Source of the DNA: Strigamia acuminata
Lineage: Eukaryota
NCBI GenBank assembly: GCA_949358305.1
Contig: OX442314.1
Span: 15,686,001 to 15,750,000, forward strand
DNA length: 64,000 bases
Reading direction: 5' to 3'
Shown here: piece after piece, positions 625 through 58,100 of the stretch
Layout: each line of letters starts with the position of its first letter
Position numbering within the stretch: the stretch's first letter is position 1
The notes under the pieces: generated by a model
Told to the model about the DNA's origin: nothing
Seen by the model: only the letters and a program-made list of their open reading frames with translations
The model's database searches: none
Made by a program: the position numbers and the translations under genes

Positions 625-1242
625 TGTGGTGACCACGAGGTCACAGAAGTGTTTAATAATTTTATAACATGGTAAAAAGTGTTTTTAGTATTTACAATAA
701 TTAATCGCCAGATTATTACGGGAAAACTAGCAATACTAGTTTTACCGTTTCTGCGGAATCAACATGATGACGTCAGCCATTTTGCATAATTCTCCGAATT
801 TATGCAAATACGTCATTTCCGGTCATTAGGGGGTATTTAAACCCGTGTTTTGACCGGAAGCGCCACACAGATATATCGCAGCAACAGTAGCATCACACCT
901 CACCTTTCAGGCCGAACACCACGGATTGATAGAGGACCGATGCCAGTTGCCCAAGTCATCTGTAACACCAAGCCAAAGATATTTGTCGTAGCAAAACTAC
1001 GACCGAAATATCTCACCATCGCTGAAGCGTTTTGCGAACACGTGTTTTGCCAGGACGCCATTAACCCTAGACAACCAGAAGCCACGTGTAAGACTGCCGT
1101 GCAGCAACAAATCGTATCCGCCGACAAGGATCCGAGACCACAACATTGTTAAGTATTATTATTATATTACAAGTGTGAAATAAAAAGGTTATTTGTAAGA
1201 TATTTGTGTAAAGTTTATTTACCGGAAACCAAGGTTACGACA
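625..1242 (+). repeat. 5' LTR (618 bp) of the truncated element
   Basis: TG...CA termini identical to the 36395/47177 LTRs. The interior is clearly homologous but diverged. Followed by CG and the PBS. Confidence 0.95.
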
Positions 1243-1244
1243 CG

Positions 1245-1262
1245 TGGGGGTCTGTCCGGGAT
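1245..1262 (+). promoter_or_regulatory. Primer-binding site, tRNA-Pro type (degenerate)
   Basis: TGGGGGTCTGTCCGGGAT; 15/18 match to the complement of the tRNA-Pro 3' end (TGGGGGCTCGTCCGGGAT). Confidence 0.85.
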
Positions 1263-1327
1263 AGTTTGACTAATCAGACTATTTAAATAAACATATCTTA
1301 CGGTTTGGAATTTACAAACTATCGAAA

Positions 1328-3064
1328 ATGCCGAAAAGCGGAAAGAATCGAAATCCTTCGACCGCAAGCGCCCGAAGAAAAGCCATGGAATCAGCCAAGG
1401 CAAGGGCCGAAGCATTGGCTAGCCCAGCGTTAGATAAATTACCGCCGGAATCGACGAAAAGAAATACGATTGGAAAAACACCAATCGATAAAAACAACGC
1501 CGATAAATTACCGCCGGAATCGACAAAAAGAAATACGATTGGAAAAACACCAATTGATAAAAATAACGCCAAAAAAACGTCTGTCGGACAAACACCGATT
1601 GGAAAAACTCCAAACCACGCCGGAAAAACGTCTATCGGACAAACACCGATCGGAAAAACGCCGAATCACGTCGAAAAAACGTCTGTCGGCAAAACACCGA
1701 TCGAAAAAACTCCGAAACCATCGAACAAGAATACGCAACCCGACTTTACGGAAACGATAGAAGAAGAATCCGACAAGGATGAAAATGGGTTTAGCCTGTT
1801 CGATAGAGACGACGACGGAACTCAACGCAATCGAGTAACCATTCAACACGGCTATAATTCAACGCGATCCCAGATTAATCGATGCAGAGAAGCATACGAA
1901 ATCGCCCGATTAATGGGAATCCCGTACGACGAAGAAGGGGATCCGCTGGCCCAATTGGACATGGTACTCCGGCTGACAAGAGAACGGGCAGAAAAAAGAG
2001 CTATCCGACGAGGGAAGAAGGCCGTCAAGCGTCAAAAAACGAATGATCAGACGACCGACTCGTATGACTCGACCCGAACCAGTTCCGACGCGGACGACGA
2101 AAGCGAAGCTGATTCGCTCGATTCGAAAGGAATTAACGTCCAAGGATGGGCTAGTATCGTAGACGAGCCCGTCGAAGTGCAGAACGAATTCTTGGAAGCT
2201 TTTCAGCAAGACAGTCGCAATAATCGCGGGAGACACTCGTGGGCATTCGCACAATCTTTCGCCGCTAAAGCTGGCAATACCAGCCAAACACCAAACGACC
2301 CGAATTCTGAAATGATACGATTAATTAATCAGAAAAACCAGGTCAGAAATCAACAGGGACGAGATAGGTTGGCAATGCCAAGCCTCGATGACATACGAAC
2401 AGTTAAAGCTAACGTTGACGCAGCTAACGAAGCCGCAAAAGCCAAGATCAAGACCGCTAACGACGCCGATAAGGAAGCCGCGAAGATTAATTCGCAACTA
2501 TACGGAGGGAGAAAATCAATCGTATTATTAAAACAAAATAACGGGATCCTGAGCGGAACAGCCGTAAATGGAATCTTCCCCTCCGGAACGCAGCTGACTG
2601 CGACTTCCCCAACTTTAACTAATCAGAATTCTCCTCAACACCAGAATTCTTCGCAAAATAACCAATTCCTTCCTCAAAATGGAAATACATCCCCGAATTA
2701 CGGAAGCCAGTATCAAGCCGATCCCATAATGGAAGCTCGACTAAGGGCACTCGAGGAACGAGCACGCGCCGACTCCCAAGCCAATCAAAATCGAAATTTA
2801 AGAAATCGACCGAGACAAAACGAGAGCCTCCTTCGAAAATATTCTGCCGACCAGTGGGCCTTAGAACAAAAAGATCGAAACATAAAGTGGTCACAATTGC
2901 GACTAATGAGGTTCGACGGAACTTGGAGAGCCGGAAATAAATTCCTAGACGAAGTGGCACTCACCATTTCACGGCTCGGAGCCGAACCCGATGAAATGGT
3001 AGCAAAAGGGTTACCCGAAATGCTAGTAGGAGAAGCTAGAGCCTGGTACGTAGAGGCGATCTAG
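1328..3064 (+). pseudogene. gag: Truncated gag ORF (578 aa), open up to the break point, lacking the capsid C-terminal part and the zinc knuckle
   Basis: Colinear with gag 37094-39634 (e.g. identical QNESLLRKYSADQWALEQKDRNIKWSQLRLMRFDGTWRAGN). The last codons and the stop come from non-element flanking DNA. Confidence 0.9.
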
Positions 3065-3233: not shown

Positions 3234-4889
3234 CCAACCAAAAGGTAGAGTGGTCCACCTTTTCACTTTCTCATTAGTGACGAAATCAGAGGCCCGAGAC
3301 AGAGTACAGACCGCCCAACTAAAGATAACTGGACAATCAATACATTCCATGGAAAGAACTTGATAAGAAACGTATCAAACGGCCTTGTTAGTGAAGTTGC
3401 ACTAGAGAAGTATACAGTTGCATTCGCAGAAAGGTTTTCGGAGGTGGGAGGAGAACGAGCGGTTGCCAGTGAAAAGTTGCAATTGTACACCGACAAACAG
3501 CCATCAATTTCATTCACCGGGCAGAGCGCTACAATTGCCAATACTTCAACTGAACTTTTCAATTCCCCAAGTGAAAGGAGGGTCAGAAGTAAGAACATTC
3601 TGTGGAAAAAAGGCAGTAGAATTTAAGACTGAGGTTTATGTCAGTCGTAAATAGATGTTTAACAAATAAGCAGAGTAGTCAATCATTTTAAAATGTAGTA
3701 AAATATTTTTTTATAACTCGTGCTGAATTTAACGATGTATTTTTTAATGGTTTCCCTGAAGCTGTAATATCTACGTGCCGAAATGATTTATGTAAAGTAT
3801 TTTTCGATAGCGATAAACGTTAACAAAAATGCTCGCAAAAATGCCAGTGCCCAATCCAAATATTATTTGTGTTTACCATCTTTTGTCTCTTAAATATCTT
3901 CTATAATAAAAACTTGATGGCAGAAAGCTATCACCGACATAAAAAGTGCAAAACTAAAAGACAGCTGCACTAAATAGGTGTTTCGTGTAGATAACACTAG
4001 GTGCAATACTATTATCTGTCATTCTACTAAAGCTTAATACGACTTTTAAATGTTTAAGCCATTCTTAGGTTTAGAAGAATCCTTAGAAACGGTTATCTTG
4101 AGTTGGGTTATACTATTGACATGTCCTTTAACTGCTCCTGTGCTTAGGGTTGTATACTCAAGGGTAAATTCAGGAAGTAACCCGTAGACTGAGTCAAGCA
4201 TTTATATTGGCAGTTTGGTGAATCCAGACTCACAACCAAACAACCTTATCTGCAAGAAGAACAACAACAATCGAATCTAAGCGAAAAACATAATTGAAAA
4301 TAATAGTGATTAACGTTTAGAATTTAGATATCTTTTTTTAGCTTTATATTTCACGATTTTTTTTATTCCACCCAAATATGCGATAATTATCAATAAGTTC
4401 ACTAATATTCATTAAAAGAATACCAACTCAACGGCTTGGTTTTCGCTTTTCAATCACTATAGCTGCATTCGCAAAGCAAGTTTAATTGGAAGTTACATAT
4501 GTTTTGCAGTTTAAATGCTGTGCGCATGCCGAATGTTAACTCTAAGACTAACAAGGGAACCACATGAATAAGTCATTTTAGATTTTGGCCAAATTTTGGC
4601 CAAATGATGTCTAAAGTGAGCTTAATAATTGCCTAAATTTTTAAATCTCCATGGTCAGCTGATTAACCATGGTAATTATCCCAAATCTGTACTCTTTTTG
4701 GGCTCTAGTAGACATTTTGAGTGAAAAGGCTGTGTGTAGGGATATGGTAAACAACTGGTTGCTGAGCAACAACTCCAGGAAAATAGTTCTGGAGCACTAA
4801 TCCAGAACTATTTTTTCTGGAGTTGTTTTCTGGTCACATGGTCACATCCAGGAATTTTATGACTGTCTTCATGAAGACAATAATAGTTT

Positions 4890-4952
4890 GTAGTTGTGGT
4901 CCAGTGGTTAAGGCAATGGACTAGGAATCTTTCCACACAGGTTCAAATCCTG
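4890..4952 (+). pseudogene. tRNA-Ser(AGA)-derived sequence in the left arm of the foldback element (mirror copy on - strand at 5143-5869, interrupted)
   Basis: GTAGTTGTGGTCCAGTGGTTAAGGCAATGGACTAGGAATC...CACAGGTTCAAATCCTG versus the recalled tRNA-Ser consensus GTAGTCGTGGCCGAGTGGTTAAGGCGATGGACTAGAAATC...CGCAGGTTCGAATCCTG. Variable arm shortened and 3' acceptor strand missing. Confidence 0.8.
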
Positions 4953-5173
4953 GTGTGTGTGTGAAAATTTTTACTTTTATTTTTTAATTTTTTTAGCAGT
5001 AATTTTAATGTTTGTAATTTTATGTTTGTTAAAAAATTAAATTAATTAATTAAAGTTTTCTAAAAACAAACATAAAATTACAAACATTAAAATTACTGCT
5101 AAAAAAATTAAAAAATAAAAGTAAAAATTTTCACACACACACCAGGATTTGAACCTGTGTGGAAAGATTCCTA

Positions 5174-5835
5174 CCGTCTTCCCCCGAACATAACGTCATG
5201 ACGTTATATTCAAGTTTTTTCGAAAATCGCTGTTTTCGAAAGTTTTAGCGATTTCTCGAATATAACGTCACTTCCAATATAACGTCATGACGTTGTATTC
5301 GAATACAACGTCATGACGTTATATTCGAGTGCATTGACGGGTGCGATGCCGGGAAGCATTGCAGGTGCGCTTTTAACGGGCGCAATGCCGAAAAAACGAA
5401 TTCGACACGAATTTTGACAAGAATTGGACACGAATTGGATACGAATTAAACACAAATTATCAGGGCCGTGTCGACCTATGAGGCGAAGAGGCGGCCGCCA
5501 GGTGGCCATGCCGTGGTATGTAAATTTACCAAGGCATGGCCACCTGGCGGCCGCCTCTTCGCCTCATAGGTCGGCACGGCCCTGCGAATTATACACGAAT
5601 TGGACACGAATTGTAAAACGAATTGTACACGAATTGTAAAACAAATTGTACACGTATTGTAAAACAAATTTGGCACGAATTGTCCAATTTACATGCTCAA
5701 TTTCTGATTTTTCTGATTTTTCAAAAGTTGCATGAAAAAGTACGAATATAACGTCATGACGTAGTGTTCGAATAAAACGTCAGGTGTCGTTGTATTCGAA
5801 CACAACGTCATGACGTTATGTTCGGGGGAAGACGG
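5174..5835. mobile_element. Tc1/mariner-superfamily (Tc2/pogo-like, CCGT ends) MITE, TA TSD, nested in the foldback element
   Basis: TA|CCGTCTTCCCCCGAACATAACGTCATGACGTT ... AACGTCATGACGTTATGTTCGGGGGAAGACGG|TA. Subterminal AACGTCATGACGTT repeats and internal ~11-bp CACGAATTG tandem repeats. Confidence 0.9.
5461..5584. mobile_element. 124-bp hairpin hAT-like MITE nested in the Tc2-like MITE
   Basis: CAGGGCCG...CGGCCCTG termini; ~52-bp near-perfect inverted arms; 8-bp TSD CAAATTAT/CGAATTAT (7/8). Confidence 0.85.
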
Positions 5836-6355
5836 TAGTCCATTGCCTTAACCACTGGACCACCACTACAAGCTATTATTGTATTAAAATTCCTGGATGT
5901 GACCATGTGACCAGAACACAACTCCAGAAAAAATAGTTCTGGATTAGTGCTCCAGAACTATTTTCCTGGAGTTGTTGCTCAGCAACCAGTTGTTTACCAT
6001 ATCCCTACACACAGCCTTTTCACTCAAAATGTCTACTAGAGCCCAAAAAGAGTACAGATTTGGGATAATTACCATGGTTAATCAGCTGACCATAGAGATT
6101 TAAAAATTTAGGCAATTATTAAGCTCACTTTAGACGTCATTTGGCCAAAATTTGGCCAAAATCTAAAATGACTTATTCATGTGGTTCCCTTGTAAATCAG
6201 CCGCCATCGAGATAACAGTCAGTCAAACATTTGAAAAAAGTTTAGTCTAAATGACTTTCCGAATGCAGCAACTGGAAAAAGCTAACAACTGGCAAACAGT
6301 ATATTTGAAAATAGCTAATAACAAAAGAAAATCGAACAAACAAAATGTTAGTTGT

Positions 6356-36300: not shown

Positions 36301-36394
36301 ACTAAAGTTTAAACACATTAAAACTTCTTTATTGAGGATTGTTTACCGATTTAGTCTGCTTTGTCGCTGTGCACAACATATACATAAAAAACAT

Positions 36395-37007
36395 TGTGGT
36401 GACCACGAGGTCACAAAAGTGTTTTAATAATTTATAATTCAATAAATAATGATTTTAGTATTCATAATAAAATATTGTCAGATCATTACGGGAAAACTAG
36501 CTATACTAGTTTTACCGTTTCTGCGGGACAGACGTGACAACGTCATGAATTTGCATAATTCTCCGAATTTAGGCAAATACGTCATTTCCGGTCCAGCCAG
36601 TATTTAAACCCGTGTCTGACCGGAAACCCCCCACTTTATAGATACCAGAGCAACATTAGCATCACCACCTCACCTTTCAGGCCGAACACCACGGATTGAT
36701 AGAGGATCGATGCCCGTTGCCAAATTCATCTATAAACCACAGTCACAGATATTTATCGTAGCAATACTACGATAGTAATATCTACCGAAGCGAAGCGTTT
36801 GCGAACACGTGTTTCGCCAGACGCCATTACCCTAGACAACAGAAGCCACGTGTAAGACTGCCGTGCAGCAACAAATCGTATCCGCCGACAAGGATCCGAG
36901 ACCACAACATTGTTAAGTATATTTGTATTATATTACAAGTGTGAAATAAAAGGTTATTATTGTAAGATATTGTGTTAAGTTTATTTACCGGAACCAAGGT
37001 TACGACA
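36395..37007 (+). repeat. 5' LTR (613 bp)
   Basis: TG...CA termini; TATA-like TATTTAAA at 36601-36608; AATAAA at 36945-36950; direct repeat of 47177-47789. Confidence 0.98.
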
Positions 37008-37009
37008 CG

Positions 37010-37027
37010 TGGGGGCCCGTCCGGGAT
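37010..37027 (+). promoter_or_regulatory. Primer-binding site complementary to the tRNA-Pro 3' end
   Basis: TGGGGGCCCGTCCGGGAT, 17/18 to TGGGGGCTCGTCCGGGAT (the MLV-type tRNA-Pro PBS), 2 nt after the LTR. Confidence 0.93.
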
Positions 37028-37093
37028 AGTTTTGAACATTCAAACTATTTTAAATAAACATATCTTACGGTTTGAACTTTGCAAACTATCGAA

Positions 37094-39634
37094 ATGACGA
37101 AAAGCGGGAAAAATCGAAACCCTTCAACCGCAAGCGCCCGAAGAAAAGCCATGGAATCCGCCAAGGCAAGGGCCGAAGCATTAGCTAGTCCAGCGTTAGA
37201 AAAGCAGCCACCGGAGCCGACGAGGGAAAAGACGACTGGAAAGACACCAGTCAACGAAAACCACGCGGAAAAACCACCCGAGAATGTGCCGACCGGAAAA
37301 ACGCCGGCTAGTAAAGTACCCGCTAGCAAAAACCCAACCAATAAAACGCCGATAAATCAGCGAATCGAAGAAGAAGTCGAAGAAGAGGAGGAAGAATCCG
37401 GACAAAGTCAGAACGGGTATAACCTATTCGACAATCGGGATAATCGCCAGAGTAATCGTGTCACGATCACACACGGTTATAATTCGAAGAAATCCCAGAT
37501 CGATAGCTGTAAAGAAGCGTACGAACTCGCTCGACTGGAGGGAATCCCTTACAACGAAGAAGGGGACCCGCTAGCACAGATGAACATGATCATTCGTCTT
37601 GCCAAAGAGCGAGCGGAAAAACGAGCCCTTAGAAGAGGTCGAAAAAACGTAAAACGTCAAAAAACGAATAACCAAACGACGGACTCCTATGATTCCACCC
37701 GAACATCCGACGCCGACGACGAAAGCGAGGCCGATTCCCTCGGCTCGAAAGGAATCAACGTTCAAGGATGGGATAGTATAGTGGACGAGCCAGTCGAAAT
37801 CCAGAACGAATTCCTGGAAGCCTTCCAGCAGGACCGTCGAAATAATAAGGGTCAACAGTCGTGGGCAATCGCCCAATCCTTTGCTACGAGAGCTGGCCAC
37901 ACCAGTCAAACCCCAAAGGATCCTAACGCAGAGATGATTAGACTGATAAATCAGCGAAACCACCTCAGAAACCAGCAAGGACGGAACAGGTTGGCAATGC
38001 CAAGCCTCGAAGATATCCAGACGGTACAAGCCAACGTCGAAGCAGCAAACGAGGCGGAAAGAATTAAAATACAAGCCGCCAACGAAGTCGACCGAGAAGC
38101 CGCAAGACTAAAGACACAACTTTACAGCGGGAGAGGGTCGACCATTTTGATCGGACAGAAGAACGGGGTCCTAAATGGAACAGCCATAAACGGAATTTTC
38201 CCCCCCGGAACACAACTGACCGAGTCGCAGCCAAACTCGACAACACCGACCTTGACCGACCCGAACTCAACCAACGGTAATTTCCAACGATTTGCGCCAC
38301 AAAATGGAGCTACGTCCCCGAACTGTGGGAATCAATACCAAGCCGATCCCATAATGGAAGCTAGATTGAGAGCACTCGAGGAACGAGCACGCGCCGACTC
38401 CCAGGTCAACCAAAATCGAAATCTGAGAAATCGCCCAAGACAAAACGAGAGCCTTCTTCGAAAATATTCCGCCGATCAATGGGCCTTAGAACAAAAGGAC
38501 CGAAACATAAAATGGTCACAGTTGCGACTGATGAGATTCGACGGAACCTGGAGGGCCGGCAATAACTTCTTAGACGAAGTGGCACTCACCATTTCACGAC
38601 TCGGAGCCGAACCCGACGAGATGGTAACAAAAGGGCTACCCGAAATGTTAATAGGGGAAGCCAGAGCCTGGTATGTGGAAGCAAAATTAAAAACTTGGGA
38701 ACAGTTTGTCGTCGCTTTCAACAGTCAGTACGGCGAGACCCAAAAAGAAATTAGACAGAGAGTCAGTCTCATGCTACAAGCCGCAGGAGAAGAATTACGA
38801 GCCTATTTCCGACGAGCGAAAAGTTTGTTCAACGAGTTGGATACGCCACTCGACGAATATGCGCAAAACGTGATTTTCGAAAAGGGGTTAAACGACACCT
38901 CAAAGAAAGTACTGAGAGATATGAACGCTCCCACAGCAGATAGTTTCGAACAGCTGCTAAAATTTGTAAATGACTATCACGAAGAAGTAGACGATCGTTA
39001 TACGGAAGCCCTGACGCCCGAACAGAGGACACAAACGCAACTCCGCATACAGCGTATCCATGCAAAAAATCATGACGCAGGGAGACTGATCCAGTCGCGT
39101 AGCTTCCTGAACGGGGAAATCGAGGCCGCACCTCCGAAAAAGGCGAACGATAAAGCCACCTCGAACCCGATACCGGCTCCAAAAGCTTACAAAGCCAGTA
39201 CAAACTCCGACGCAACTAATCTCGAAGAAGGGAGGGAAAGTGAAGACAATAACTCCGAGCAAAACTCAGGAGGGGATACCAGCGATAGCCAACAAGAAGA
39301 AGAGACTCTCCACGCTAACATGGGGAAAGAAATCGCCCCAAGCTACCGACCCCGAATGAAGACCGCGAATAAAACGGAGCACCACAATCCAAAAAGCGAC
39401 AAACCCTACGAGAAAAAAGAGTTCGTGAGACGACCGTACCCGAAAACAGATAACTCCACCACAAAACCTTGTAATTATTGTAACGAGGTGGGACACTGGA
39501 GAAGAGATTGTCCAAAACGAAAGAAGAGGAAAGAAGAGAAGGAAGCCGCCAAAAACGACGCATTGTTAGAAAAGCTAACAGCCAAATTCGAAGAACTGAC
39601 AAAAAACTGGTTAAAGCAGACAGAGAAAAAATAA
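37094..39634 (+). CDS. gag: Gag (846 aa): long low-complexity N-terminus, retrotransposon capsid region, one CCHC zinc knuckle
   Basis: LIGEARAWY...TWEQFVVAFNSQY...QAAGEELRAY capsid-like motifs; CNYCNEVGHWRRDC knuckle; ATG position conserved with the copy at 1328. Confidence 0.95.
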   Translation: MTKSGKNRNPSTASARRKAMESAKARAEALASPALEKQPPEPTREKTTGKTPVNENHAEKPPENVPTGKTPASKVPASKNPTNKTPINQRIEEEVEEEEEESGQSQNGYNLFDNRDNRQSNRVTITHGYNSKKSQIDSCKEAYELARLEGIPYNEEGDPLAQMNMIIRLAKERAEKRALRRGRKNVKRQKTNNQTTDSYDSTRTSDADDESEADSLGSKGINVQGWDSIVDEPVEIQNEFLEAFQQDRRNNKGQQSWAIAQSFATRAGHTSQTPKDPNAEMIRLINQRNHLRNQQGRNRLAMPSLEDIQTVQANVEAANEAERIKIQAANEVDREAARLKTQLYSGRGSTILIGQKNGVLNGTAINGIFPPGTQLTESQPNSTTPTLTDPNSTNGNFQRFAPQNGATSPNCGNQYQADPIMEARLRALEERARADSQVNQNRNLRNRPRQNESLLRKYSADQWALEQKDRNIKWSQLRLMRFDGTWRAGNNFLDEVALTISRLGAEPDEMVTKGLPEMLIGEARAWYVEAKLKTWEQFVVAFNSQYGETQKEIRQRVSLMLQAAGEELRAYFRRAKSLFNELDTPLDEYAQNVIFEKGLNDTSKKVLRDMNAPTADSFEQLLKFVNDYHEEVDDRYTEALTPEQRTQTQLRIQRIHAKNHDAGRLIQSRSFLNGEIEAAPPKKANDKATSNPIPAPKAYKASTNSDATNLEEGRESEDNNSEQNSGGDTSDSQQEEETLHANMGKEIAPSYRPRMKTANKTEHHNPKSDKPYEKKEFVRRPYPKTDNSTTKPCNYCNEVGHWRRDCPKRKKRKEEKEAAKNDALLEKLTAKFEELTKNWLKQTEKK

Positions 39635-42600
39635 TAAATCTGTCTGCACGCCCGGAAGACCAAACCCCAAAATTTACCACGAATACGACAATTGACCAGG
39701 CAATTAACGAAGTAATTACGGAAGAAGTAGTCAAATTAAAACTCGAATTAAAAGAGAAAAAATCGAAAGAAATTGAAACAAATAATAAAGAAATTAGCGA
39801 CTCAAGTTCGGAAGACGAATTAAAAGCCAAATGGATAAACACCAATTGGTTAGAAAAACAAATAAAAGAATTACAGAAAAAGGTCGTTTATTTCACTACG
39901 GCTTACTTCACCACAGAAAAACGCGAATATAGTGGCCCAACCACTAATACGGCGAACGGCGAAAAAATAGCCGAAACATTCCAAGAATTACCTCACGCCT
40001 ACGAGGAGGCCCCACCTCGAAAGAAACGCATTTTACATTGTAATTTGGTTAAAGAGCGGAAGGACTCACTCGCAATGTTAACAATCAAGTTTAACGACAA
40101 AAAATTCATCGGTTTGTTGGATTCGGGAGCCGACCGGTCCTTTATCTCTTCAGATCTATACGAGTCGTTGGACAAAAAACAACGCGACAAACTACGGGGA
40201 ATAAGCGAAAATGTGGCCGTAAAAACCGCTGCTGGAGAAGTGCGTCCAGTAGGGGTACTGACAACAAAAGTCATATGGGAGGGAGGCGTAATAACCCACC
40301 CTTTCATCGTTTTACCAACCTACGACACGGTCCTACTCTTGGGTATGGACATCATGGCCATAATGGAGATCCAGCCCAACCCCATAACGAGGTCCTGGAA
40401 CTATATCGATAAACGCGAGGACCCCCGACTAATGACAGTACCTACCGAACTCCTAGATTCAAACGACGAAGAGGACGAATGGAAGGGCGGAAATTTGAAG
40501 CAATTCGTACAAGATTACGATTTCAAATCTTTTAACGCCCGACTCCAAGAAGGAAATTTGGCTCACAATTTGGCCATGGACGCGAACCTAGGAGAAACCC
40601 AGACTAAATTACTTGAAGAAATGCTACAAAAACATCGAAAAATCCTGACTAAAGAACCGGGAAAGACAAATTACGTAAAACACGAAATAGAATTAAGTAC
40701 GGATAAGCCAGTACGAGTTCCATTCAAGGGCATGAACCCCCAAAAACGCGAAATCGTCAAGACGATCTGTCAAGACTTACTGGACAAGGGGATAGTGTCC
40801 GAGGCATTAGGAGAATATGCGATGAGAATCGTACTCGTCATGCGTGCAGGATCGGAACCCAGACTGTGTATCGATTATCGACCTCTAAACGCCATTACCG
40901 TTATCGACCCCGTCCAGATGCCATCAATCGAAGCTATTCTTCGAGAACTAGCCCCATTTAATTGGGTAACAACGATGGATCTGTCGAAAGGATATTGGCA
41001 GGTCAAACTCCGTGCCGAAGACAAAGAAAAAACCGCTTTCTGGTCCCCAATGGGCAGATTAATGTTTAACGTCATGCCATTTGGCCTAGTAAATGCCCCG
41101 GCAACATTTCAACGATTAATCGAGAAGGTTTTGGGCGACGCGCTACATAAATACGCCTGGGCTTACCTGGACGATATTATTATTGTTTCCCAGACTTTTG
41201 ACGAACACATCAAACATATCGACGAAGTAATACGTCGTTTAGCAAAAGCCGGACTCCACATACACCCCGGAAAGAGCCAGTTTTGCCGAAAAGAACTTGC
41301 GTTTCTTGGATACAAAGTTGGAGTCAATGGCTTATCCATAGACCCAAAGAAAGTACGAGCAATCACCGATTTTCCAGCACCTACGGACGTGAAAGGGGTA
41401 CAACGTTTTTTAGGAATGGTAAATTTCTTCGGCCGACTCCTGCCACATTTAGCAGAAGTCGCGGCCCCAATCACCGATCTTTTAAAGACTGTCCAGAAAA
41501 TAAATCCAAAGGAGGACCCGCCGAAAGACCCCGAAATCAAATTTAACTGGACCAGCCATTGCGAAGCAGCGTTTGACAAAATCAAACAAATGCTAATCGA
41601 CACCAAAACCATCCCTCTCCCCGACTTGAATCGCGAATTTATCTTACATACGGATGCGAGTAAAATCAGATTGGGGGCTGCGTTGATGCAAATGCACGAA
41701 ATCGACGGCATACATCAAGAAGTACCCACGATCTTTATCAGCCGGAAAATTCAAGCCGCCGAGAAAAATTACTCAGCAACAGAGCTTGAATGCTTGGCAA
41801 TCGTATGGGCAGTTCGTAAATTCAGGCCTTACCTCGAGTTTACAAAATTTACCGTCCAGACCGACCATCAGGCATTAAGGTGGTTCATGGGCCTGAAAGA
41901 ACCTTCGGGCCGGATGGCTCGATGGCAATTAGAGCTCATGGCTTACGACTTACAAATCGAGTACAAGCCAGGGAAGTATAACACAGTCGCCGACGCGCTC
42001 TCTAGAGCTCCCGCCTCAGAACCCGACGAGCCAGACGACGACGGCGACGACGATTCTCGGATAGCTTACTGTCCCACCCCGATCAGGAAGTGGGAATTCA
42101 GAAAACAGAATGAACTGCCGAAAGAAAAGTTGGAATCTTCCGATGAAAAATACGTCGGATATTGGATGAGGGCATATCAATCGGCAAAAGATGCCAGACC
42201 AAATTACGACTTATCCATCGAACCCAGAGTCTCGGATAAATTTGTGCGAGCTTTCGTTACGCACGTGAGTAAAGGCACGAACTGTGTCCCACCTACTCGC
42301 GAGGAACTCGTCGAAGCTCAGAAGAACGACACCGCCTTCTGTAAAAGGTTCTATGACTACTTGACCAACGAGACTTTCCCTGGCGACGTCTACAGCAAAG
42401 AATCCAGAGAAGAGTTCAAAATTAAGGCTTCCGCTTATCTGATAGACGATGGCCTACTTTTAAAGTACCATCCGAACTTTCGGGACGACTTGACAGAGTC
42501 AGGGAGTTCAATTAAAGTCGTAATTCCGAGAAAAGTTCGAACACAAATTCTGTGGATGGTACACGGCCACCCTCTAGCCGGACACGCCGGCGTGGCAAGG

Positions 42601-43935
42601 ACTCTCTACCGGGCCAGTCAACTGTACTATTGGCCCGAAATGAGAAGGGACATCGTACGATTCATACGACACTGTCCACGATGCCAAGCCTGCAAGCCTC
42701 GGAATAAGGCTAACTACGAGAATTTATCACTTGGACCGTTCGCCCCTTTTGATTGTTGGAGCGTAGACCTTATGGGTCCTAAGATAACAAGTGCAAATAG
42801 CCACAAATACATACTCGTGATCATGGATGTCGCAACAGGATGGCCAGAGTTGTATCCGATGGCCCACCCGACTAAGCAGAAAATAATCCAGTGCCTCTAC
42901 GAAGTCGCGTTACATTTTGGCTTCCCGCGGAAATTAATTTCCGATAATGGCCCACAATTCGCATCAAGGTTATACAAGGATTTCTGCAATCAATTCGACA
43001 TTCAACCATCATTTACTTCAACGTATAACCCACGGGCTAATCCCGTGGAGCGACTCAACCGCGACATAAAATATGCGCTTGCTATTTTCACAGACGTACA
43101 TTCCAAGTGGGACGAGTTCCTTAAAGAAATAGCATTTAGCATCCGAACGACCATTTCGAGAAACCGCGGCTTTTCCCCGGCTTATCTCAACTTCGCTCGA
43201 GAGCTACGAGTGCCCTGGGATCCACGCATCCCAGAAGGAATTCGAAAAGTCGATCCAAAAAATCCTCACATTTACGTACATCAACTAGAACAAGCAATTT
43301 CGGCAACCTACCAACATATGATGTCACACGTGTTTGACATGCGCGAACGAGTGAAAAAGTCTGAAAAGAACACACAATTTTGTAATTTCAAAATCAACGA
43401 TCTCGTATGGAAAGACACTCACATTTTATCCAGTGCAGATAAAGGGATTCATGCCGGCTTAGCCGACAAACGAGACGGCCCATACGTAATTACCAAGGCC
43501 CACGGCGGGAACGCATTTTCTCTGCAACGTTTGGCCGATAATGTAAATTTTCGATCAATCCACGCTCGAGAACTGACGCCTTACTTGCCGGAATTTCCAC
43601 AAGAAGAATGGGCCGAGGACCAAACGCAGCCATCTCCATCGCCCACAATACGAGATATGTTCGACGACATCGCCACTGTTTCAGACTTGAACGAAAATAC
43701 GACTCACGCAACTCCAGACAGCGCCGAACTAACTAGCGCCCCAGATGGAAATTTAGGAGGGGAGGAAGCAGCAGTTAACGAAGAAACTCCTAAAACTCCT
43801 GAAAAAGAAAAAGAGATTACTAAAAGATCCACACGATCGAGAAGTAAAATACCGAAACCTATAACACGACAAAGTACAAGAAAAAAGGCACCAAACCCGT
43901 TTATAAAGGACGGTAAAATCACCGGGAGGACATGA
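39508..43935 (+). CDS. pol: Pol polyprotein (protease, reverse transcriptase, RNase H, integrase), translated as Gag-Pol after frameshift at ~39607
   Basis: LLDSGADRSFI (PR); RLCIDYR, DLSKGYWQ, MPFGL, YLDD (RT); TDAS, ELECLA, TDHQAL, ADALSR (RH); HGHPLAGH...CPRC, DLMG, SDNG, PVERLN (IN); GPY module. Confidence 0.98.
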   Translation: MSKTKEEERREGSRQKRRIVRKANSQIRRTDKKLVKADREKIINLSARPEDQTPKFTTNTTIDQAINEVITEEVVKLKLELKEKKSKEIETNNKEISDSSSEDELKAKWINTNWLEKQIKELQKKVVYFTTAYFTTEKREYSGPTTNTANGEKIAETFQELPHAYEEAPPRKKRILHCNLVKERKDSLAMLTIKFNDKKFIGLLDSGADRSFISSDLYESLDKKQRDKLRGISENVAVKTAAGEVRPVGVLTTKVIWEGGVITHPFIVLPTYDTVLLLGMDIMAIMEIQPNPITRSWNYIDKREDPRLMTVPTELLDSNDEEDEWKGGNLKQFVQDYDFKSFNARLQEGNLAHNLAMDANLGETQTKLLEEMLQKHRKILTKEPGKTNYVKHEIELSTDKPVRVPFKGMNPQKREIVKTICQDLLDKGIVSEALGEYAMRIVLVMRAGSEPRLCIDYRPLNAITVIDPVQMPSIEAILRELAPFNWVTTMDLSKGYWQVKLRAEDKEKTAFWSPMGRLMFNVMPFGLVNAPATFQRLIEKVLGDALHKYAWAYLDDIIIVSQTFDEHIKHIDEVIRRLAKAGLHIHPGKSQFCRKELAFLGYKVGVNGLSIDPKKVRAITDFPAPTDVKGVQRFLGMVNFFGRLLPHLAEVAAPITDLLKTVQKINPKEDPPKDPEIKFNWTSHCEAAFDKIKQMLIDTKTIPLPDLNREFILHTDASKIRLGAALMQMHEIDGIHQEVPTIFISRKIQAAEKNYSATELECLAIVWAVRKFRPYLEFTKFTVQTDHQALRWFMGLKEPSGRMARWQLELMAYDLQIEYKPGKYNTVADALSRAPASEPDEPDDDGDDDSRIAYCPTPIRKWEFRKQNELPKEKLESSDEKYVGYWMRAYQSAKDARPNYDLSIEPRVSDKFVRAFVTHVSKGTNCVPPTREELVEAQKNDTAFCKRFYDYLTNETFPGDVYSKESREEFKIKASAYLIDDGLLLKYHPNFRDDLTESGSSIKVVIPRKVRTQILWMVHGHPLAGHAGVARTLYRASQLYYWPEMRRDIVRFIRHCPRCQACKPRNKANYENLSLGPFAPFDCWSVDLMGPKITSANSHKYILVIMDVATGWPELYPMAHPTKQKIIQCLYEVALHFGFPRKLISDNGPQFASRLYKDFCNQFDIQPSFTSTYNPRANPVERLNRDIKYALAIFTDVHSKWDEFLKEIAFSIRTTISRNRGFSPAYLNFARELRVPWDPRIPEGIRKVDPKNPHIYVHQLEQAISATYQHMMSHVFDMRERVKKSEKNTQFCNFKINDLVWKDTHILSSADKGIHAGLADKRDGPYVITKAHGGNAFSLQRLADNVNFRSIHARELTPYLPEFPQEEWAEDQTQPSPSPTIRDMFDDIATVSDLNENTTHATPDSAELTSAPDGNLGGEEAAVNEETPKTPEKEKEITKRSTRSRSKIPKPITRQSTRKKAPNPFIKDGKITGRT
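39601..39647 (+). promoter_or_regulatory. -1 programmed ribosomal frameshift signal (gag to pol)
   Basis: Slippery heptamer A AAA AAC (39601-39607) in the gag frame, 8-nt spacer, then a 9-bp stem GCAGACAGA (39616-39624)/TCTGTCTGC (39639-39647). Pol is in the -1 frame and has no ATG in the overlap. Confidence 0.88.
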
Positions 43936-44181
43936 TAAAGCAAGAAAAATCCAAAATGGTTGGCATAACCAATCAAAAGCGATAAAACAATATGACGTAA
44001 TTACCCCGACCTCCTAGGGACAAAAACAATCACAAGGAGACTCCAACAATCAACTACGTATTACATACGAAAGCCAATCAAGATACTTAACCTCGACTAC
44101 CCTTTCAACTTTGCACTCCGCGTTCTGTCACGACGACAACAGGTGCTTGACAAAAATCGCAACCAACAAATTGAATCAAAA

Positions 44182-47097
44182 ATGCGAAGAAACTGGAAGC
44201 AATCACCCGACAACGAAGAGGAAGAAATGGATCGGGACCCAAGCGAAGACGAATGGAACGATCCCGCAAGATGGGACGAGGTTGAACCGGAAGAAAATCG
44301 GGAAAAGCCCGATGGAAACGAAAAGGTAAAAATAACAAAGAATTTAATTTGTGGCTAAACCACGAAAATACGTGAAACAAGATTCATAAAAGAAAACATC
44401 TTTATGTCAACAAACGAAAAATGACACGAGCCATTATTTAAGATTCAACACGTGTAAAAAGCACATGGTCGACCATGGCGCCATCTTGAATTCAAATTCG
44501 GAATTTAACAAAAATCTAATTTTTATGTATTCATTCCTCAGCCGGAACACCAACTTACGTGGGGACCCATCGATCCGCAAAACGTGTCTTCGGGTACACT
44601 CTGGAGAAGCGAAATTCCGACCCCATTTCGAAGAGCGTTAGAGGACGACGTCGACACCGGACCATGGAAAATTCGGCTCACTTCATCCCGAGCCCGATCG
44701 CGATTTTGGGCAAGTCAGGAGACCCTGATACACTACTTCCCAGAAAAGATGCGCGACGCACTGAGGACTGAAATTCCAGAACGCGACGACGCACCAGCAC
44801 CACTCCCAAACAAGTTTTTGGAAAAGGACTACCCAAGCGAGCCCGAAGAGTGGGCTGTCCTCGAGAGGTGGCAAAACGCCGCTACAGACGAAGAGCGCCG
44901 ACAAATACACAGAGACTATTACAACGAAGTCAGACGGACGGCGTATCGAGATCTCTTCAAAATACTGAAACCAGCAGGGTATTCGACAGATGAGATAAAA
45001 ACTTGGTTAAGCCAGGTTCGAGGAGAAAGACCAGACGTTCCCAACTGGCGACCCGAACACGGATTTATCACCTCACAGAAAGCAATGCACCAGCTCCACT
45101 ACCTGGGCATCTTTGGGCGCAAGCGACAAAAAGCGGAGAAGCGACTCTCGAGCGAGTTGTTGAATAACACACACGACAACAAGCGACGACGCCTGGATCA
45201 GCCAAGCACGTCGTACAACACGCAAGATCGATCGCAGTCACATCCTCGAGTTTATTACCGACACGCTCGAGAACCCTCACCGCGACGAGAACCCAGAGTC
45301 GAGAGACCACGAGAGGTTGAGACTTACCGCTACTCCAGGAATCGACCGAACCAACGCGGATGCCTCAGGTTATCAAGACCACGAGCGGAAACATGGGGAC
45401 GCTTTGAGAGATCACGTGAAGTCGATGAGGTAGAGACTCTGCAAGTGGAAGTTCGACAAGAAGTGCCAATAACGATCGAACACGAACAATCGGTAGAGCC
45501 GATGATCGTACCCGAACAAGAAAAACTTTACACCGAAGCCGATATGGTAGCAGCCGTCCTGAAAGTCAAGAACGAACAGGCGAAACCCGTCTATCGGCCG
45601 ACCAAATCAATCGAGATGAGTGTAACATCGGTACCAAGCGCATTCATCAAGGCGCCAACAAAACCAGTTAGTAGCGTACCTTCTAGTCTGCCCAGCGCAT
45701 TCCGAAAGACTGTGATTATCGGAACCCCAACATCGCTGAGTCCCTTTGAACAACTTAAACGACGACAAGATCGTTTTGGACCCATTTTCCCGGCCGTACC
45801 GGAAGAAACGCGAAGCGAAATTTCCACGTCAAGAACGCCGATTGTTTGGGATGAGCCCGAACCCGACATTCAACGAGTTTTAATTAATTCAAAGCAAGTG
45901 GCCGTGGCTAAAACCGATAAGAACGACCAAACGCCTTCAAAACCAACCTCCAATAACCAGTCTTCGGAGGTTCGAGCCACGATCCAGTTCGACCCAACGC
46001 CATACGATTTACAGTCGTTTCTCGACACAACCACGATCGAACAAGCGAAAGAGATGGTGTCCGACGTTGACGAATATCAAGCCAGGACCATGCGGATTGC
46101 GGTAACAAACATCCAAAGTGCAGCCATAGAGTTCATCAAGAGCCCTGGACGAGATCATCCGTCACGAACAGCGCGCACAACGGTCGTACTCACGGACATG
46201 ATGTCGCTCGTATTGGCCGCGTCCACATTTAGAAACGCCCGTGTAGCGTTGGCAGCCTGGGCAGTCGTCGCACATGAAAGCTTTCTGTTGCCTCCCGCTC
46301 TCATCGAACGATGGCTAAAGTTAGTCCCTTCCTGTATCCAGGTTCGCACACAGTTAGTTGCGGAGGACGTCGACCCGGAGCAATCATATCAAGCGGTCCG
46401 AACTGTGGCTTTACCACAGAGCAAACCAGTCGTATTAATCAACGAACCTCTCCCTGAGACTCCAGCAAACCAGACAGTCCCGGCAGCCGCTCCAGAGGAG
46501 ACGATAAAGTTCCCCGAAGGACTGGTCCCGATCGAAGGCGTGAAAGCAGTCGTCCGAAAATCAAAAGCGAAGCCGAAGATCCTGCGGCCCAAGAAAAGGA
46601 CGGAGCCAAAGCCGTTGCCTCCAATCGATGCACATCTGAAGACGTATTATCCGAGCTTGACCATGACCAAGGGAACGAAGGATAAAATTAAGAAATCAAG
46701 CGATCATGGTCATTCGCTTTATGTGTGGATGGAACGCACCCTCGAAGCAGGTCCGGGCGTCGATTTCATTCAACACCAACGTCTATTGCGCGCCCACCGT
46801 GCCCCAAAGACTCCAGCCGAGGCCCAGAAGATCCACCACACGAATCAAGGCCTAGCTCCCTTCCTTTCACGTATTTGGATACACGAACGAGTCGGCGCCG
46901 CATACGAACCGGTTGGCGGCCACGATCGATATTTTATCGGAGAATTTGAAGATCCAAGCGACCGCTCGTCCCGTCTTACCTCCACTCCGCCGATCAGTAA
47001 ACCCACAACTCCGAAGATGGCTGAACCATCCGTAACTGAAGAACTACCTCCACCTCCGCCTCCGGATGTTCCCCAGGGATCACCTGAGAAGAAGTAA
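44182..47097 (+). CDS. ORF3, unknown accessory protein (~899 aa), predicted join(44182..44325,44542..47097); not env-like
   Basis: 851-codon open frame with no ATG near its 5' end. An upstream 48-codon ATG exon joins in frame via AAG|GTAAAA ... CTAAT...TTCATTCCTCAG|CCG. The ORF ends 67 nt before the PPT. Confidence 0.75.
44326..44541 (+). other. Predicted 216-nt GT-AG intron within ORF3
   Basis: Donor AAG|GTAAAA, branch-point-like CTAAT at 44516-44520, pyrimidine tract and CAG, phase 0 at both ends. AT-rich and contains in-frame stops (first TAA 44356-44358). Confidence 0.7.
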
Positions 47098-47164
47098 AGT
47101 GAAATCTAACTTTGAGTTTTCGCAATGTTTGTTGTTTTATTGTAAATCCCCCAACAACATTGCT

Positions 47165-47174
47165 GAGGAGGGGA
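47165..47174 (+). promoter_or_regulatory. Polypurine tract
   Basis: GAGGAGGGGA, 2 nt (CG) before the 3' LTR. Confidence 0.9.
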
Positions 47175-47176
47175 CG

Positions 47177-47789
47177 TGTGGTGACCACGAGGTCACAAAA
47201 GTGTTTTAATAATTTATAATTCAATAAATAATGATTTTAGTATTCATAATAAAATATTGTCAGATCATTACGGGAAAACTAGCTATACTAGTTTTACCGT
47301 TTCTGCGGGACAGACGTGACAACGTCATGAATTTGCATAATTCTCCGAATTTAGGCAAATACGTCATTTCCGGTCCAGCCAGTATTTAAACCCGTGTCTG
47401 ACCGGAAACCCCCCACTTTATAGATACCAGAGCAACATTAGCATCACCACCTCACCTTTCAGGCCGAACACCACGGATTGATAGAGGATCGATGCCCGTT
47501 GCCAAATTCATCTATAAACCACAGTCACAGATATTTATCGTAGCAATACTACGATAGTAATATCTACCGAAGCGAAGCGTTTGCGAACACGTGTTTCGCC
47601 AGACGCCATTACCCTAGACAACAGAAGCCACGTGTAAGACTGCCGTGCAGCAACAAATCGTATCCGCCGACAAGGATCCGAGACCACAACATTGTTAAGT
47701 ATATTTGTATTATATTACAAGTGTGAAATAAAAGGTTATTATTGTAAGATATTGTGTTAAGTTTATTTACCGGAACCAAGGTTACGACA
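47177..47789 (+). repeat. 3' LTR (613 bp)
   Basis: Identical by eye to 36395-37007; followed by TSD ACAT. Confidence 0.98.
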
Positions 47790-49302
47790 ACATTTATTTC
47801 AAATGCGCCTATTGTAATTTCATTATTTTTTAAACCTCGGAGGCATAAGGGTAAAATGTGCCGTTCTGGTATAAGGCATTACAGATTTATGAACAATTTT
47901 CAGGTCAATTAGTTAAAGCGCCGTTTCGATTTTTGAACGTTCGCAACTAATTTTATAGAGGGTGCTAGTTGTGAACAAAATCACAAATTTTCAGCAAATT
48001 AAATGGGTAGGAAAAAAAATTTTCCTATTCAACAAGGAGCTTGTGCATATTTATAACAAAATTGAGATTGCACTTGATCTTTAAGCCAAATTAATATTGT
48101 CGTTGAAAAAAATGTATTCCACTTCGATTGATTTTGAATAAATAGTTCAAATGTACTGGAAACACTAATTTCGTTTCTGCCATTAACGCTGGAATTTGAA
48201 ACAGGTGCTAGAGAGACGCGCTGGATTGTGTTAGTTAATAATTACACAACTGAATCTGATCGCTTGCAAATCATCCGAATTAGCTTGCCTTGCAATCAGG
48301 CCTTTTAAAAATAAATAAATAAAATAAATAAAACTAAACTATAAGCACCACAGATTAAAAAGTGAAACAAAAGACAATTTTCCAAACGTGACAAAAAATA
48401 GTCAATAAACTAGACTTACTTGTTACTATAGGCGTGTCAGGAGTTTGTCAGGCATCAAAAATAAAGAGGAACGAGCCGTGCATTCTCGATGAGGAAATAA
48501 AAAGCTTTCTGGTTCATAATATGCATTATTAACTGCAATACAAAAACGTATTATGAATAAATGAGTTTGCTATTAAGAACTTCACTCAAGTGCATGATAG
48601 CCAACAAATCACTCAAAATTCATAATAAAGAACTAAAAACTTGATGTACTGTATATCCCAAAAGAAATTTGTTTTTAATATTGCAATAGAGTACATTCCC
48701 GTCACATCACTTCGATGTTTGTCATTTGAAGCACCACTCAAAGTAATTACTTCTCGTTATAATTAACTTATTTTCAAATGATACCCGAATGTCTTTCTAA
48801 CTACGTTAAAAGACTCGTTTACAGAGTAAAGAATTATAGTTTTAGCAGAAAGTTGTGGCGACCTCAAAATTCAATTCCGGTTGGTAGAACATTTTCATGA
48901 AACATGAGAAACAATTTATAAAAAAGTAAAAACTACTTTTTTATTTGTTGTCATCATCCTACTGGGGTTGGCAGGCAAAGACGTTGCCACGGTGAAAAGA
49001 GTACAAGCCTCAATACTACAGAATGTGAAGCCTCAACCAGAGGTATATTGAGGCGACAGATTCTTATTTATTTTATCATCATTAATTTTAATATTAGTCA
49101 TTTTATATTCTATGCGTATATTCCATTTTGGATATGACACTTCTTACATCTTTTCTCAAGTCAAAGAATAAAAATTTCATTCTTTTATAATATTGAAAAT
49201 ATTATAGTTTATTTATTGAATTTTAATAATTAGTTTGCTTATATGTAACTGCATGTAAGGGACTAATAAGACTAATATAGCATCGCCTATTGCCGACCGC
49301 TG

Positions 49303-55186: not shown

Positions 55187-58100
55187 CTATACAAGGTAAA
55201 TGTTAAAATGTTCTTGTCTAAATGACATTTGAGCTTCTTGTAAAATGCGCATTCGTGGTCCCATTGGTATTCCTATTTTCTGAAGCCGCTCTTCAGTCAA
55301 GTAAGGTAACTCAATCATGCCAATTCTCTCGTTTTCAAAATTGGACGCATATTTCTAAAGAAAACAAATGCTGTATTTTAATCATTCATCAACATTCCCT
55401 TACGTCAACTTTACCTCATATCCCAATTTCTTCAGGAAAAGCCTTAGTAAAGGAGGTTCATCCCCAAAAAATCTAAAAATAAAACAATTAACCAACAAGG
55501 AAATTCCTACACGAATTAAATAAATCCATACTTTGCTAATTTCTTTATTCTCGTCGGATTAGTCATTGACGGAATTGAAGACCTGAAATTATCCCATTCA
55601 CTCGCTCCCCCTCCTCCTCGTGCAGGTTTCCCGCCTCCACCGCCGACATTCAGTCTCAATGCCATGCATTGGTCAGTTAATTGATTAACTTCTCGACGAA
55701 GTCCTTCAATCTCCTACATGATTTTAAACATTCATATTTGTCACAAGAGTCAGTCAATCAAAAAATTAATTTAGAACCTTACCTGAAACATCACATGCTG
55801 AGTCCTCATTTCAGAACTCAAATGAGCCACACTCCGAGCCAAAGTCACTACATGCGATTCAAGCCGTTGAAACCGTTTAGTGACACCTCTAGAAATTGTA
55901 ATAAATAATTCACTCGTAAAAATGTTCGTATATTATGCACGTAATGAAAACTTACTTGGTCTCGGGTCCTGTTCGCCTTTTATCGTGAGCATAACGTTTG
56001 TCCCCGTAACCCCTTGATTTACTAGCGGAGCTAATGTAACCTTTTCCGGTAAGCGATGACAAACTGCCGTGAACTTTGCGTTTGCCTTTGGATTCAATTA
56101 AAGACTTCTGACTTAACTGGCCATTCCGTGATTTAACTCCAAGCATTTTAAGAACCTAGAAATTGAAAAATTATAATATTCTATTTTTCAAAAATATCAA
56201 AAATATTTTCGAATCACCTCCGAGTACATTTGCTCCAATCCTTCCAGTTGTCTTCTTAATTCGTGCACATCACTTGATGGACTGGCTACACCATCAGTAG
56301 TTTGACTACTGCCATCACTTACGTCATCTAACAGACTTTCCATATCCAAACCTGTAGTTGTAGATGTCAAATCGCCGTCACCTACTTCGTGCAATCGAGT
56401 TAAACTGGGATTTAGCACTAAAACAGGAAGAATGTTATTTAAAATTTCAATAATATCTTCTAATTTAATTTATTACTTATCGGTGCTCTTGATTTAGCCC
56501 TTATTTGATTTGGTGTCGGTATGCTACCATTTCCACTTCCCGAGGATCTGCCGTTGCGTGTGTAACGCGGATCTTGCATTCGGTTTTGCCACTGACCCAA
56601 CCGTTGTGGAGGCCTTTGCTGAGCAGACCATTCTGTTGATTCTGGAAAATGGCCACCAGGTGACTCATTCAACATTGGAGTACTAAAAAATAAAACAATA
56701 TTGTTTACAAAAATTGTACAAAATTGAATAACAATAAATAAATTAAAAAATATATATATATATATATTTTCACCTTAATGACATTTTGTATTTCGATGGT
56801 AATTTTGATGGTAACTTCGATGGTAATTTCGACGGTAATTTCGCTGGTGATCTTGAAGATGACGGGTTCGACTCGGAAGAATGTTTATTCGGAGATAAGG
56901 GAGGTAGTGGAGGAGTGACGGATGTGCTGTCGCTGACAGTCGACTCCATACTTCGGGATAAAGCCAGTGTAGATGCAGACTGATTTTTCATTATTTGATG
57001 CAATTCTTTCTCCTGCTCATCTTTACGGCAAGATTGTAACGGCGAAGCATCGGATGACTCCATGCTGGAATCCAACGTACCGCTGAGCGAACTAGATTTA
57101 ATTGAAGGTGCCATTGTGCCTCGACCAGAATCAGACGCTGTTTGCGTATGCGCATTTTTGTCATAATCCGAACTGCTACCCGAAGTGTGACTATTCGGAG
57201 TCACGTTGTAAAATGAATCTGGCAGCACCCCCTGACTAAATTTCAACTTATCATTGAACATAGTCTTTTGTGGAAACTTGACATCAGTCGGCAAAATTAA
57301 CCCTTGTTGGTAGTAGTATTGAATGTCAGTTGGGTTTTGATAATGATTATGCGGCGCACATTTGTTTGGTTTCGGACTCACATTGAAACTTTGGCTGCTG
57401 GCATCATTTATCTTTGGTTCAGTAACTGTTGCTAACTGAGATTGATCGAGCCCCTCTCTTGTTGGTTCGTCAGTTTCTCTGTCCTCGTGTTTCAATTTAG
57501 CACCAGTCTCTGGGCTGTGTTCGTATCTGTGCGGAAGTCCATTAGTTGACCAATAATGCTGCACCGTTTCTTGTGATTGTTGCCTCGCAATAGTTTGTCC
57601 ATTTGATGGCCAATCGGGAGTAACCCTGGAATATAATTGCGCCTGTTACATCTAATTATTTTCCGTATCAAATTATCTTACCGTTGCTGATTGTGGCCAT
57701 CAGCAATACCACCATTTGGTAGTATTGGCATGGCGTGGTAAGTTCGAGGACTCATTTGAGGTTTGTTTTCGAGTAAAACCTGTCCACGAGATCCTTCGTT
57801 GCGTTGGTTAGGAGTAGATGGCTTTATAAAAAAATAATTTATCAAATAACGTCACTATTAAATTATTAGAATTAATATAAGATACCACATATCCTTCTTC
57901 TTCAAGACCAGGATTACTGATACCGTCGGGATACGATATTGCCCTTCTTGAATTTGGCAATAACGGTTCGCCGCTTTCTAGTAACATCTGAATATAAATA
58001 AATAAAATTGCTTATATAATTTTAAAAAATATTAAAAATAATTAAGTTTACTCGATTTCTGTCTTGTTCGCGTTTTGGTTGATTTGGATCGTCGGTTGTG

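Follow-up and report, generated by a model that had tools for sequence, protein, structure and literature searches.

A young Ty3/gypsy element with a large, very probably spliced, non-envelope third gene and a possible role in RNA export

A complete Ty3/gypsy retrotransposon lies at 36395-47789 of the window, the whole stretch of 64,000 nucleotides of Strigamia acuminata DNA that was analysed here. Its third open reading frame (ORF3), located between pol and the polypurine tract (PPT), is supported by its sequence as a real gene that has long resided in the element, is no envelope and is very probably spliced. By analogy with CERV of the C. elegans element Cer1 and with Rev, we propose that ORF3 could be an independent helper for the nuclear export of unspliced RNA, with a probability of roughly 0.35.

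Paired TG...CA LTRs, a target duplication, a PBS, a PPT and gag followed by PR-RT-RH-IN place the element in Ty3/gypsy (Metaviridae), and its parts are as follows.

36395..37007, plus strand: 5' LTR, 613 nt, TG...CA, identical to the 3' LTR; target duplication ACAT upstream at 36391-36394
37010..37027, plus strand: PBS, with a sequence pattern also common to many retrovirus-like viral contigs
37094..39634, plus strand: gag, 846 aa, with a Retrotrans_gag domain and one CCHC knuckle (zf-CCHC E 1.7e-5)
39484..43935, plus strand: pol, PR-RT-RH-IN in gypsy order, in the -1 frame relative to gag
47165..47174, plus strand: PPT, 5' of the 3' LTR
47177..47789, plus strand: 3' LTR; target duplication ACAT downstream at 47790-47793

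The first-pass annotation had described an intact young Gypsy element, and the identical 613-nt LTRs, the 4-bp target duplication and the presence of gag and pol bear this out. A slippery heptamer is found at 39601-39607, with a stable RNA fold just 3' of it (z -4.7). Gag (846 aa) is unusually long, as is the RH-IN linker, and about 140 charged residues stand ahead of the protease in pol (39640-40060). The flanks of the element are AT-rich and show no CpG depletion. Public DNA contigs came from two runs of one study, possibly the source of the assembly itself; they span each of the 30 bins, those of ORF3 and its intron among them, in identity bands ranging from >99% to <90%. Among the data sets listed with the element there was no RNA run, which is uninformative on its expression. 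Contigs of both runs also join 36389 to 47789 across the element, and given this empty-site allele the insertion looks polymorphic. The identity bands and the empty-site joint together indicate that the insertion is recent, in a family with young and diverged members.

Within the window, a truncated sister copy at about 625-3060 comprises an LTR, a PBS variant and the 5' part of gag, at about 67% protein identity. Comparison of its codons with those of the main copy gave 167 synonymous and 127 non-synonymous differences, with 231 codons the same, and the N-terminal region of its gag contains tandem 51- and 69-nt repeats. This copy stops in gag, and no second ORF3 copy is present in the window. 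A large nested palindromic element at 4546-6198, with 314-nt arms that are 98% complementary and tRNA-like fragments within, is probably of foldback or MITE type. On the minus strand, at 56197-57645, a Ser/Pro-rich frame of 291 aa and a short frame resembling a coiled coil, neither with a Pfam match, are probable host gene exons.

The reverse transcriptase is closest to that of Ty3 among solved structures (E 2e-38, against 6e-15 for foamy virus RT and 6e-7 for MLV), and the best full-length pol relative shares 37% identity. Matches to pol occur in animals. In an RT-RH tree built from the 120 matches listed among 3,988 significant ones, the element forms a long branch with at most 45% identity, and its pairing with P0001 may reflect long-branch attraction. 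No named references are among these 120 matches, and for both reasons we leave the clade unnamed. The lineage of the element is poorly sampled. Viral contigs contained no sister elements with flanks; two distant pol loci were found on short metagenome contigs. A scan with the PBS returned mostly retrovirus-like genomes, none of them matching ORF3.

The gene model of ORF3 consists of two exons and a short intron, both exons being located after pol.

44182..44325, plus strand: ORF3 exon 1, 48 codons from ATG 44182, acidic (net -12 over the first 50 aa), with three Trp
44326..44541, plus strand: predicted intron, 216 nt, phase 0, AAG/GTAAAA ... TTCCTCAG/C, 31% GC, four in-frame stops
44542..47097, plus strand: ORF3 exon 2, 851 codons and a stop

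The coordinates given in the first-pass annotation for the 851-codon stop-free frame between pol and the PPT, and for a 48-codon acidic, Trp-containing exon joining it in frame across a canonical 216-nt intron, proved exact, and the joined exons would encode 899 aa. Exon 2 has 0 stops in its own frame against 23-33 in each of the five others, and the longest open frame in 2000 shuffles reached 255 codons, so that an open frame of 851 codons arising by chance was rejected. Without splicing, the frame from ATG 44182 ends after 58 codons, and the four in-frame stops of the intron exclude read-through. Among the splice sites of the element's plus strand, acceptor 44541 ranks first of 768 AG and donor 44326 fourth of 443 GT, in a rough score whose donor weights are textbook frequencies. 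The GC content is 31% in the intron versus 51-52% in the exons, and an unsupervised search for GC change-points in 44182-45000 returned a low-GC segment at 44316-44535, whose ends differ from those of the predicted intron by at most 10 nt, a result matched by 0 of 42 shuffles. The splice prediction is thus strong, and removal of 44326-44541 by splicing appears likely. In the DNA, the intron is present in several contigs of both runs, as shown by variants at 44442 and 44492.

The intron also contains two motifs of potential regulatory interest. One, at 44479-44488 on the minus strand, has the sequence CAAGATGGCG, which occurs once in the window against 0.06 expected; we take it to be a YY1-type motif. 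The other is a 9-mer at 44449-44457, presumably of E-box type, which is common to all three LTR copies; 5 occurrences were found for 0.44 expected, of which 3 are the LTR copies.

The first-pass annotation left unexplained what makes ATG 44182 the first start codon, which requires either a splice upstream of it or an internal promoter. Two candidate sites could provide the splice.

36852..36857, plus strand: candidate major donor in the LTR, CGT/GTAAGA, rank 9-10 of 443
44096..44142, plus strand: candidate upstream acceptor, with a branch-point-like CTTAAC, a pyrimidine tract and CAG at 44140-44142, rank 13 of 768

Acceptor 44142 is in phase 0 with ATG 44182, with 13 open codons between them. 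The LTR donor lies 3' of a TATA-like box (36601) and 5' of AATAAA (36945), and according to the accessible text of PMC3694450 a donor placed between promoter and poly(A) signal in the LTR is the arrangement of foamy viruses. The donor is identical in the diverged (about 80%) sister LTR, at 1088, inside the best-kept block of that LTR (95%, 92 nt). This 92-nt block (36840-36931, 47622-47713 and 1076-1167) shows 95% identity between subfamilies, most other aligned LTR blocks being at about 80-86%, and it may be a cis element. RNA folding of LTR windows is well above that of shuffles (z to -5). On this sequence evidence, we see an even chance that transcription starts from the 5' LTR and that a first splice joins a donor near 36852 to acceptor 44142. 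The 36851-44143 and 44325-44542 splices together would yield a doubly spliced ORF3 mRNA devoid of the PBS and hence uncopyable, whose predicted leader has one upstream ATG, at 36710.

Alternatively, an internal promoter may be used, or exons derived from gag, and ORF3 might accordingly be a real gene whose splicing has been modelled wrongly or incompletely. In that case the AT-rich segment, which holds transcription-factor-like motifs, would act as an internal promoter, or exons derived from gag would be used as in CERV; indeed, gag contains phase-0 donors, of which the one at 39488 has rank 2 and that at 38624 is conserved in the sister copy. Exon 2 had been said to have no early ATG, and while its first 69 codons are open without one, codon 70 (44749) is an ATG from which 782 aa could be produced unspliced. 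Of the 22 joints in DNA contigs 15 were listed, and the 44325-44542 joint was absent from these, as is expected with or without splicing. Against this alternative, the open frame begins 33 nt upstream of the element's best acceptor and runs for 69 codons before that first ATG, and exon 1, coding-like and in phase, runs up to a strong donor where GC drops. We therefore regard a faulty splice model as quite unlikely and retain the two-exon gene.

Concerning the predicted protein, exon 2 would encode a helical block 1 (about 44686-45177), a basic and Arg/Glu/Ser-rich linker, a helical bundle 2 (about 46009-46410), a block 3 (about 46624-46866) and a Pro-rich tail. Three globular-looking blocks had been reported; single-sequence AlphaFold models give blocks 1 (about residues 97-260) and 2 (538-671) as helical with moderate confidence, whereas block 3 has a pLDDT <50. 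A PIP-box-like QxxLxxYF at 44716-44739 (residue 107) is reached by 1.3% of shuffles, one of 14 patterns scanned, and is therefore weak and only putative. All three NLS-like clusters previously noted are present, yet K[KR]x[KR] is found twice, versus 1.07 times in shuffles (p 0.29), and with 2 occurrences in gag and 3 in pol the count of ORF3 is not unusual. Because these motifs stand at chance level, a nuclear location of the protein is a weak prediction. ORF3 also has 14 SP/TP sites and four loose NES-like patterns, the latter given as a raw count.

The hydropathy scan showed an acidic, non-hydrophobic N-terminus, a Pro-rich, hydrophilic C-terminus with no anchor, and a highest 19-residue Kyte-Doolittle mean of 1.49 at residues 618-636, in the middle of the protein. 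The only 2 Cys, at residues 322 and 646, are 324 apart, and no RxK/RR furin motif was found in ORF3. The lack of a signal peptide, of a Cys-rich ectodomain and of a C-terminal TM anchor, as first described, was thus confirmed, and identity as an envelope was rejected. The accessible parts of PMC13524379 and PMC3383448 describe errantivirus envelopes of F and gB type, in contrast to which ORF3 is without signal peptide, TM anchor, furin site and cysteine bridges; as to an F- or gB-type fold, the fold searches used low-confidence single-sequence models and gave no significant match.

The comparison with errantiviruses made in the first-pass annotation was itself misplaced. The Gag of our element has a CCHC knuckle, and its PBS is of a type which we take to be tRNA-Pro. 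By contrast, Drosophila errantiviruses have a Gag without CCHC knuckle and a PBS for tRNA-Lys or tRNA-Ser, as stated in the accessible part of PMC3383448.

The codon usage of exon 2 correlates with that of gag and pol with r 0.63 in its own frame, 0.41 and 0.47 in the other frames, the value between gag and pol being 0.44. Its CpG observed/expected ratio is 1.27, as in gag and pol, while the flanks are at about 1.0. Such element-like codon usage and CpG suggest that ORF3 is a long resident and not a fresh capture from the host. In the DNA contigs of the two runs, pieces about 84-89% identical cover exon 1 and the start and end of exon 2, and ORF3 is therefore common to diverged family members. 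One diverged contig per run is without 44262-44685 (exon 1, intron and parts of exon 2), which is consistent with a decayed copy. A dN/dS comparison had been suggested, and the variants available for it are sparse: in exon 2, 6 are synonymous and 6 non-synonymous (12 of the 40 rows listed of 838), which does not differ from the neutral 33% (p about 0.2). Among the rows listed, 3 of 7 are synonymous in pol and 8 of 12 in gag, a sample that cannot discriminate. Thus, presence of the gene in diverged members holds, whereas purifying selection is not apparent.

These variant counts, together with the position that an envelope would occupy, could fit a decayed envelope or a passenger fragment of host DNA with no role for the element. 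This is very improbable in view of the 851 stop-free codons, the element-like codon usage, the presence in diverged members and the lack of signal peptide, anchor, furin site and cysteines. We thus keep ORF3 as a gene of the element.

Searches for relatives of ORF3 returned no significant match by sequence or by fold, in line with the earlier remark that the family was not recognised. For exon 2, a word index supplied 7,998 candidates of 468-1490 aa, with no homologue at E 0.001, and 4,293 candidates of 30-467 aa, with none at E 0.1; this index search thus covered proteins of 30-1490 aa. Against 1.84 billion representatives, exon 2 gave 0 matches at E 0.001, and the ESM Atlas gave no usable match for either exon 2 or block 2. 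Searches of ORF3 against Pfam, NCBIfam and PDB sequences yielded sub-threshold matches only, and Rfam none at E 0.1. Fold searches relied on two low-confidence models of ORF3 (mean pLDDT 52 and 39) that barely cover block 3. With these, all Foldseek matches had E >0.1, so that the proposed Foldseek check disclosed no known envelope or fusogen at this model quality; in another fold search the best Z were 3.7 and 7.5, in the range of generic helical bundles. Five rows of the BCL-2 family (Z 5.5-6.0, rmsd 4.5-4.9) were not accepted as a match. These blank searches establish neither a new fold nor an absence of relatives. A description of the ORF3 family was not found in the literature, most subscription papers, Repbase and the supplements of PMC13524379 being outside the scope of that search.

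The closest known system by layout is CERV of C. elegans Cer1, itself a Ty3/gypsy element, which the accessible text of PMC10309623 presents as a spliced orphan non-envelope ORF after pol needed for nuclear export of the genomic RNA. CERV is a protein of 517 aa from five exons, of which exons 1-3 follow the reading frame of gag, and it possesses a Cys loop as well as a G-protein-like domain (same part of PMC10309623). Here too, a large orphan non-envelope ORF separates pol from the 3' LTR. However, ORF3 has 899 aa and apparently its own ATG exon followed by a short internal intron after pol, although phase-compatible gag donors exist. The C4-type Cys-rich loop that CERV needs for export is absent, the 2 Cys lying at 322 and 646, and, as regards the G-protein-like domain, the modelled blocks are predicted to be helical, block 3 staying at pLDDT <50. 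CERV is made from a spliced mRNA, whereas splicing of ORF3 is a strong sequence prediction. Since the Cys loop is absent and no sequence link between CERV and ORF3 was found, ORF3 resembles CERV by layout and is not a CERV member; function is demonstrated for CERV and an export role is proposed for ORF3 by analogy.

The accessible texts of PMC5408684 (bdelloid Juno and Vesta) and PMC7264820 (plants) describe other ORFs located after pol, in sense orientation in plants, which are family-specific and usually spliced, and encode DEDDy exonucleases, GDSL esterases, TM or coiled-coil proteins. ORF3 resembles them as a family-specific extra ORF after pol, and no DEDDy exonuclease or GDSL/SGNH esterase family was found in it by Pfam at E up to 1-5; a TM or coiled-coil domain like theirs was not detected either. 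An extra non-envelope ORF after pol is thus already known, and what the sequence adds here would be an orphan gene in a divergent young element. Foamy viruses (Tas, Bet) and lentiviruses (Rev) have accessory genes that are spliced and located at the 3' end. In its LTR our element has a candidate donor ahead of the poly(A) signal, a further likeness to them, while the retroelement family differs, sequence similarity to Tas or Rev is lacking and ORF3 is far larger than either.

A retroelement copies its unspliced RNA, and an intron spliced from the packaged genome is lost permanently. The intron of ORF3, which bears the strongest acceptor of the element, has been kept, implying that its splicing is controlled or that it has a cis role. 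In the mechanism that we propose, transcription would begin in the 5' LTR, the LTR donor would join acceptor 44142 and a second splice would remove 44326-44541, so that ATG 44182 would open the frame of a soluble 899-residue protein on a spliced sub-genomic mRNA which, without PBS, could not be copied. Default splicing would yield ORF3 first; the protein might then bind element RNA via its basic and Arg-rich parts and switch production over to unspliced RNA, to supply Gag/Pol and packaging. As with Cer1 CERV or HIV Rev, unspliced genomic RNA would escape splicing and leave the nucleus. The basic clusters, the Arg/Glu/Ser tract, the NES-like patterns and the SP/TP sites are compatible with such a role. 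No stable RNA fold was found in the spacer (z -0.45), that of the intron is modest (z -2.28, 4/200 shuffles) and the windows of exon 2 have a mean z of 0.08; for these reasons, no response element is obvious near ORF3. As the accessible text of PMC10309623 recalls, many simple retroviruses retain introns through cis elements alone, so that a trans factor is not strictly required. The first-pass annotation had read ORF3 as a nuclear accessory or regulatory protein of a complex-retrovirus-like element; the non-envelope orphan gene, very probably spliced, agrees with this, but the NLS-like motifs at chance level do not add to it.

ORF3 could also be a spliced nuclear transactivator, similar to Tas of foamy viruses, or an anti-silencing factor similar to plant VANC, with exon 1 as an activation module. 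Acidic sequence with aromatic residues is the pattern of acidic activation domains, and exon 1 has both. The intron, moreover, carries the only YY1-type motif of the window and the 9-mer common to the LTRs, and the LTR donor 5' of the poly(A) signal recalls the foamy viruses of PMC3694450, as far as its accessible part describes them. Nevertheless, Pfam detected no DNA-binding domain, the intron motifs were chosen after inspection of the sequence, and a VANC-like anti-methylation role is unlikely as the host flanks show no CpG depletion. Overall, we find a transactivator or anti-silencing factor, although the chief competitor of the export reading, somewhat doubtful.

Alternatively, a spliced and functional ORF3 might act outside RNA export and transcription, as a particle-associated, integration-tethering or Bet-like host-factor-binding protein, possibly touching membranes via residues 594-636. 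The protein is large and linker-rich, its tail is Pro-rich, the helix pair 594-636 would make a borderline hydrophobic hairpin, and a PIP-box-like motif is present; according to the accessible part of PMC5408684, the ORF3s of other Gypsy elements are captured enzymes or fusogens. This reading is unlikely, since no catalytic or late-domain motif was found and the PIP-like motif falls in a predicted long helix.

An export helper thus remains our preferred reading. Tentatively, this divergent Ty3/gypsy lineage may carry a self-contained, intron-bearing regulator of a new protein family, which would switch between genomic and doubly spliced RNA as Rev does. Gene control of the complex-retrovirus kind would then have a second unrelated origin among animal retrotransposons besides CERV, the only Gypsy third-ORF regulator with a shown function that we found in the literature. 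If true, a second, sequence-unrelated regulator would mean more than one origin of Rev-like control of unspliced RNA among retrotransposons, and such control would be no peculiarity of retroviruses or nematodes. As the element is young, intact and multi-copy with an empty-site allele, its expression, splicing and selection are directly testable in the host. Surveys baited with envelopes, such as that described in the accessible part of PMC13524379, would miss such elements, which may therefore be under-counted.
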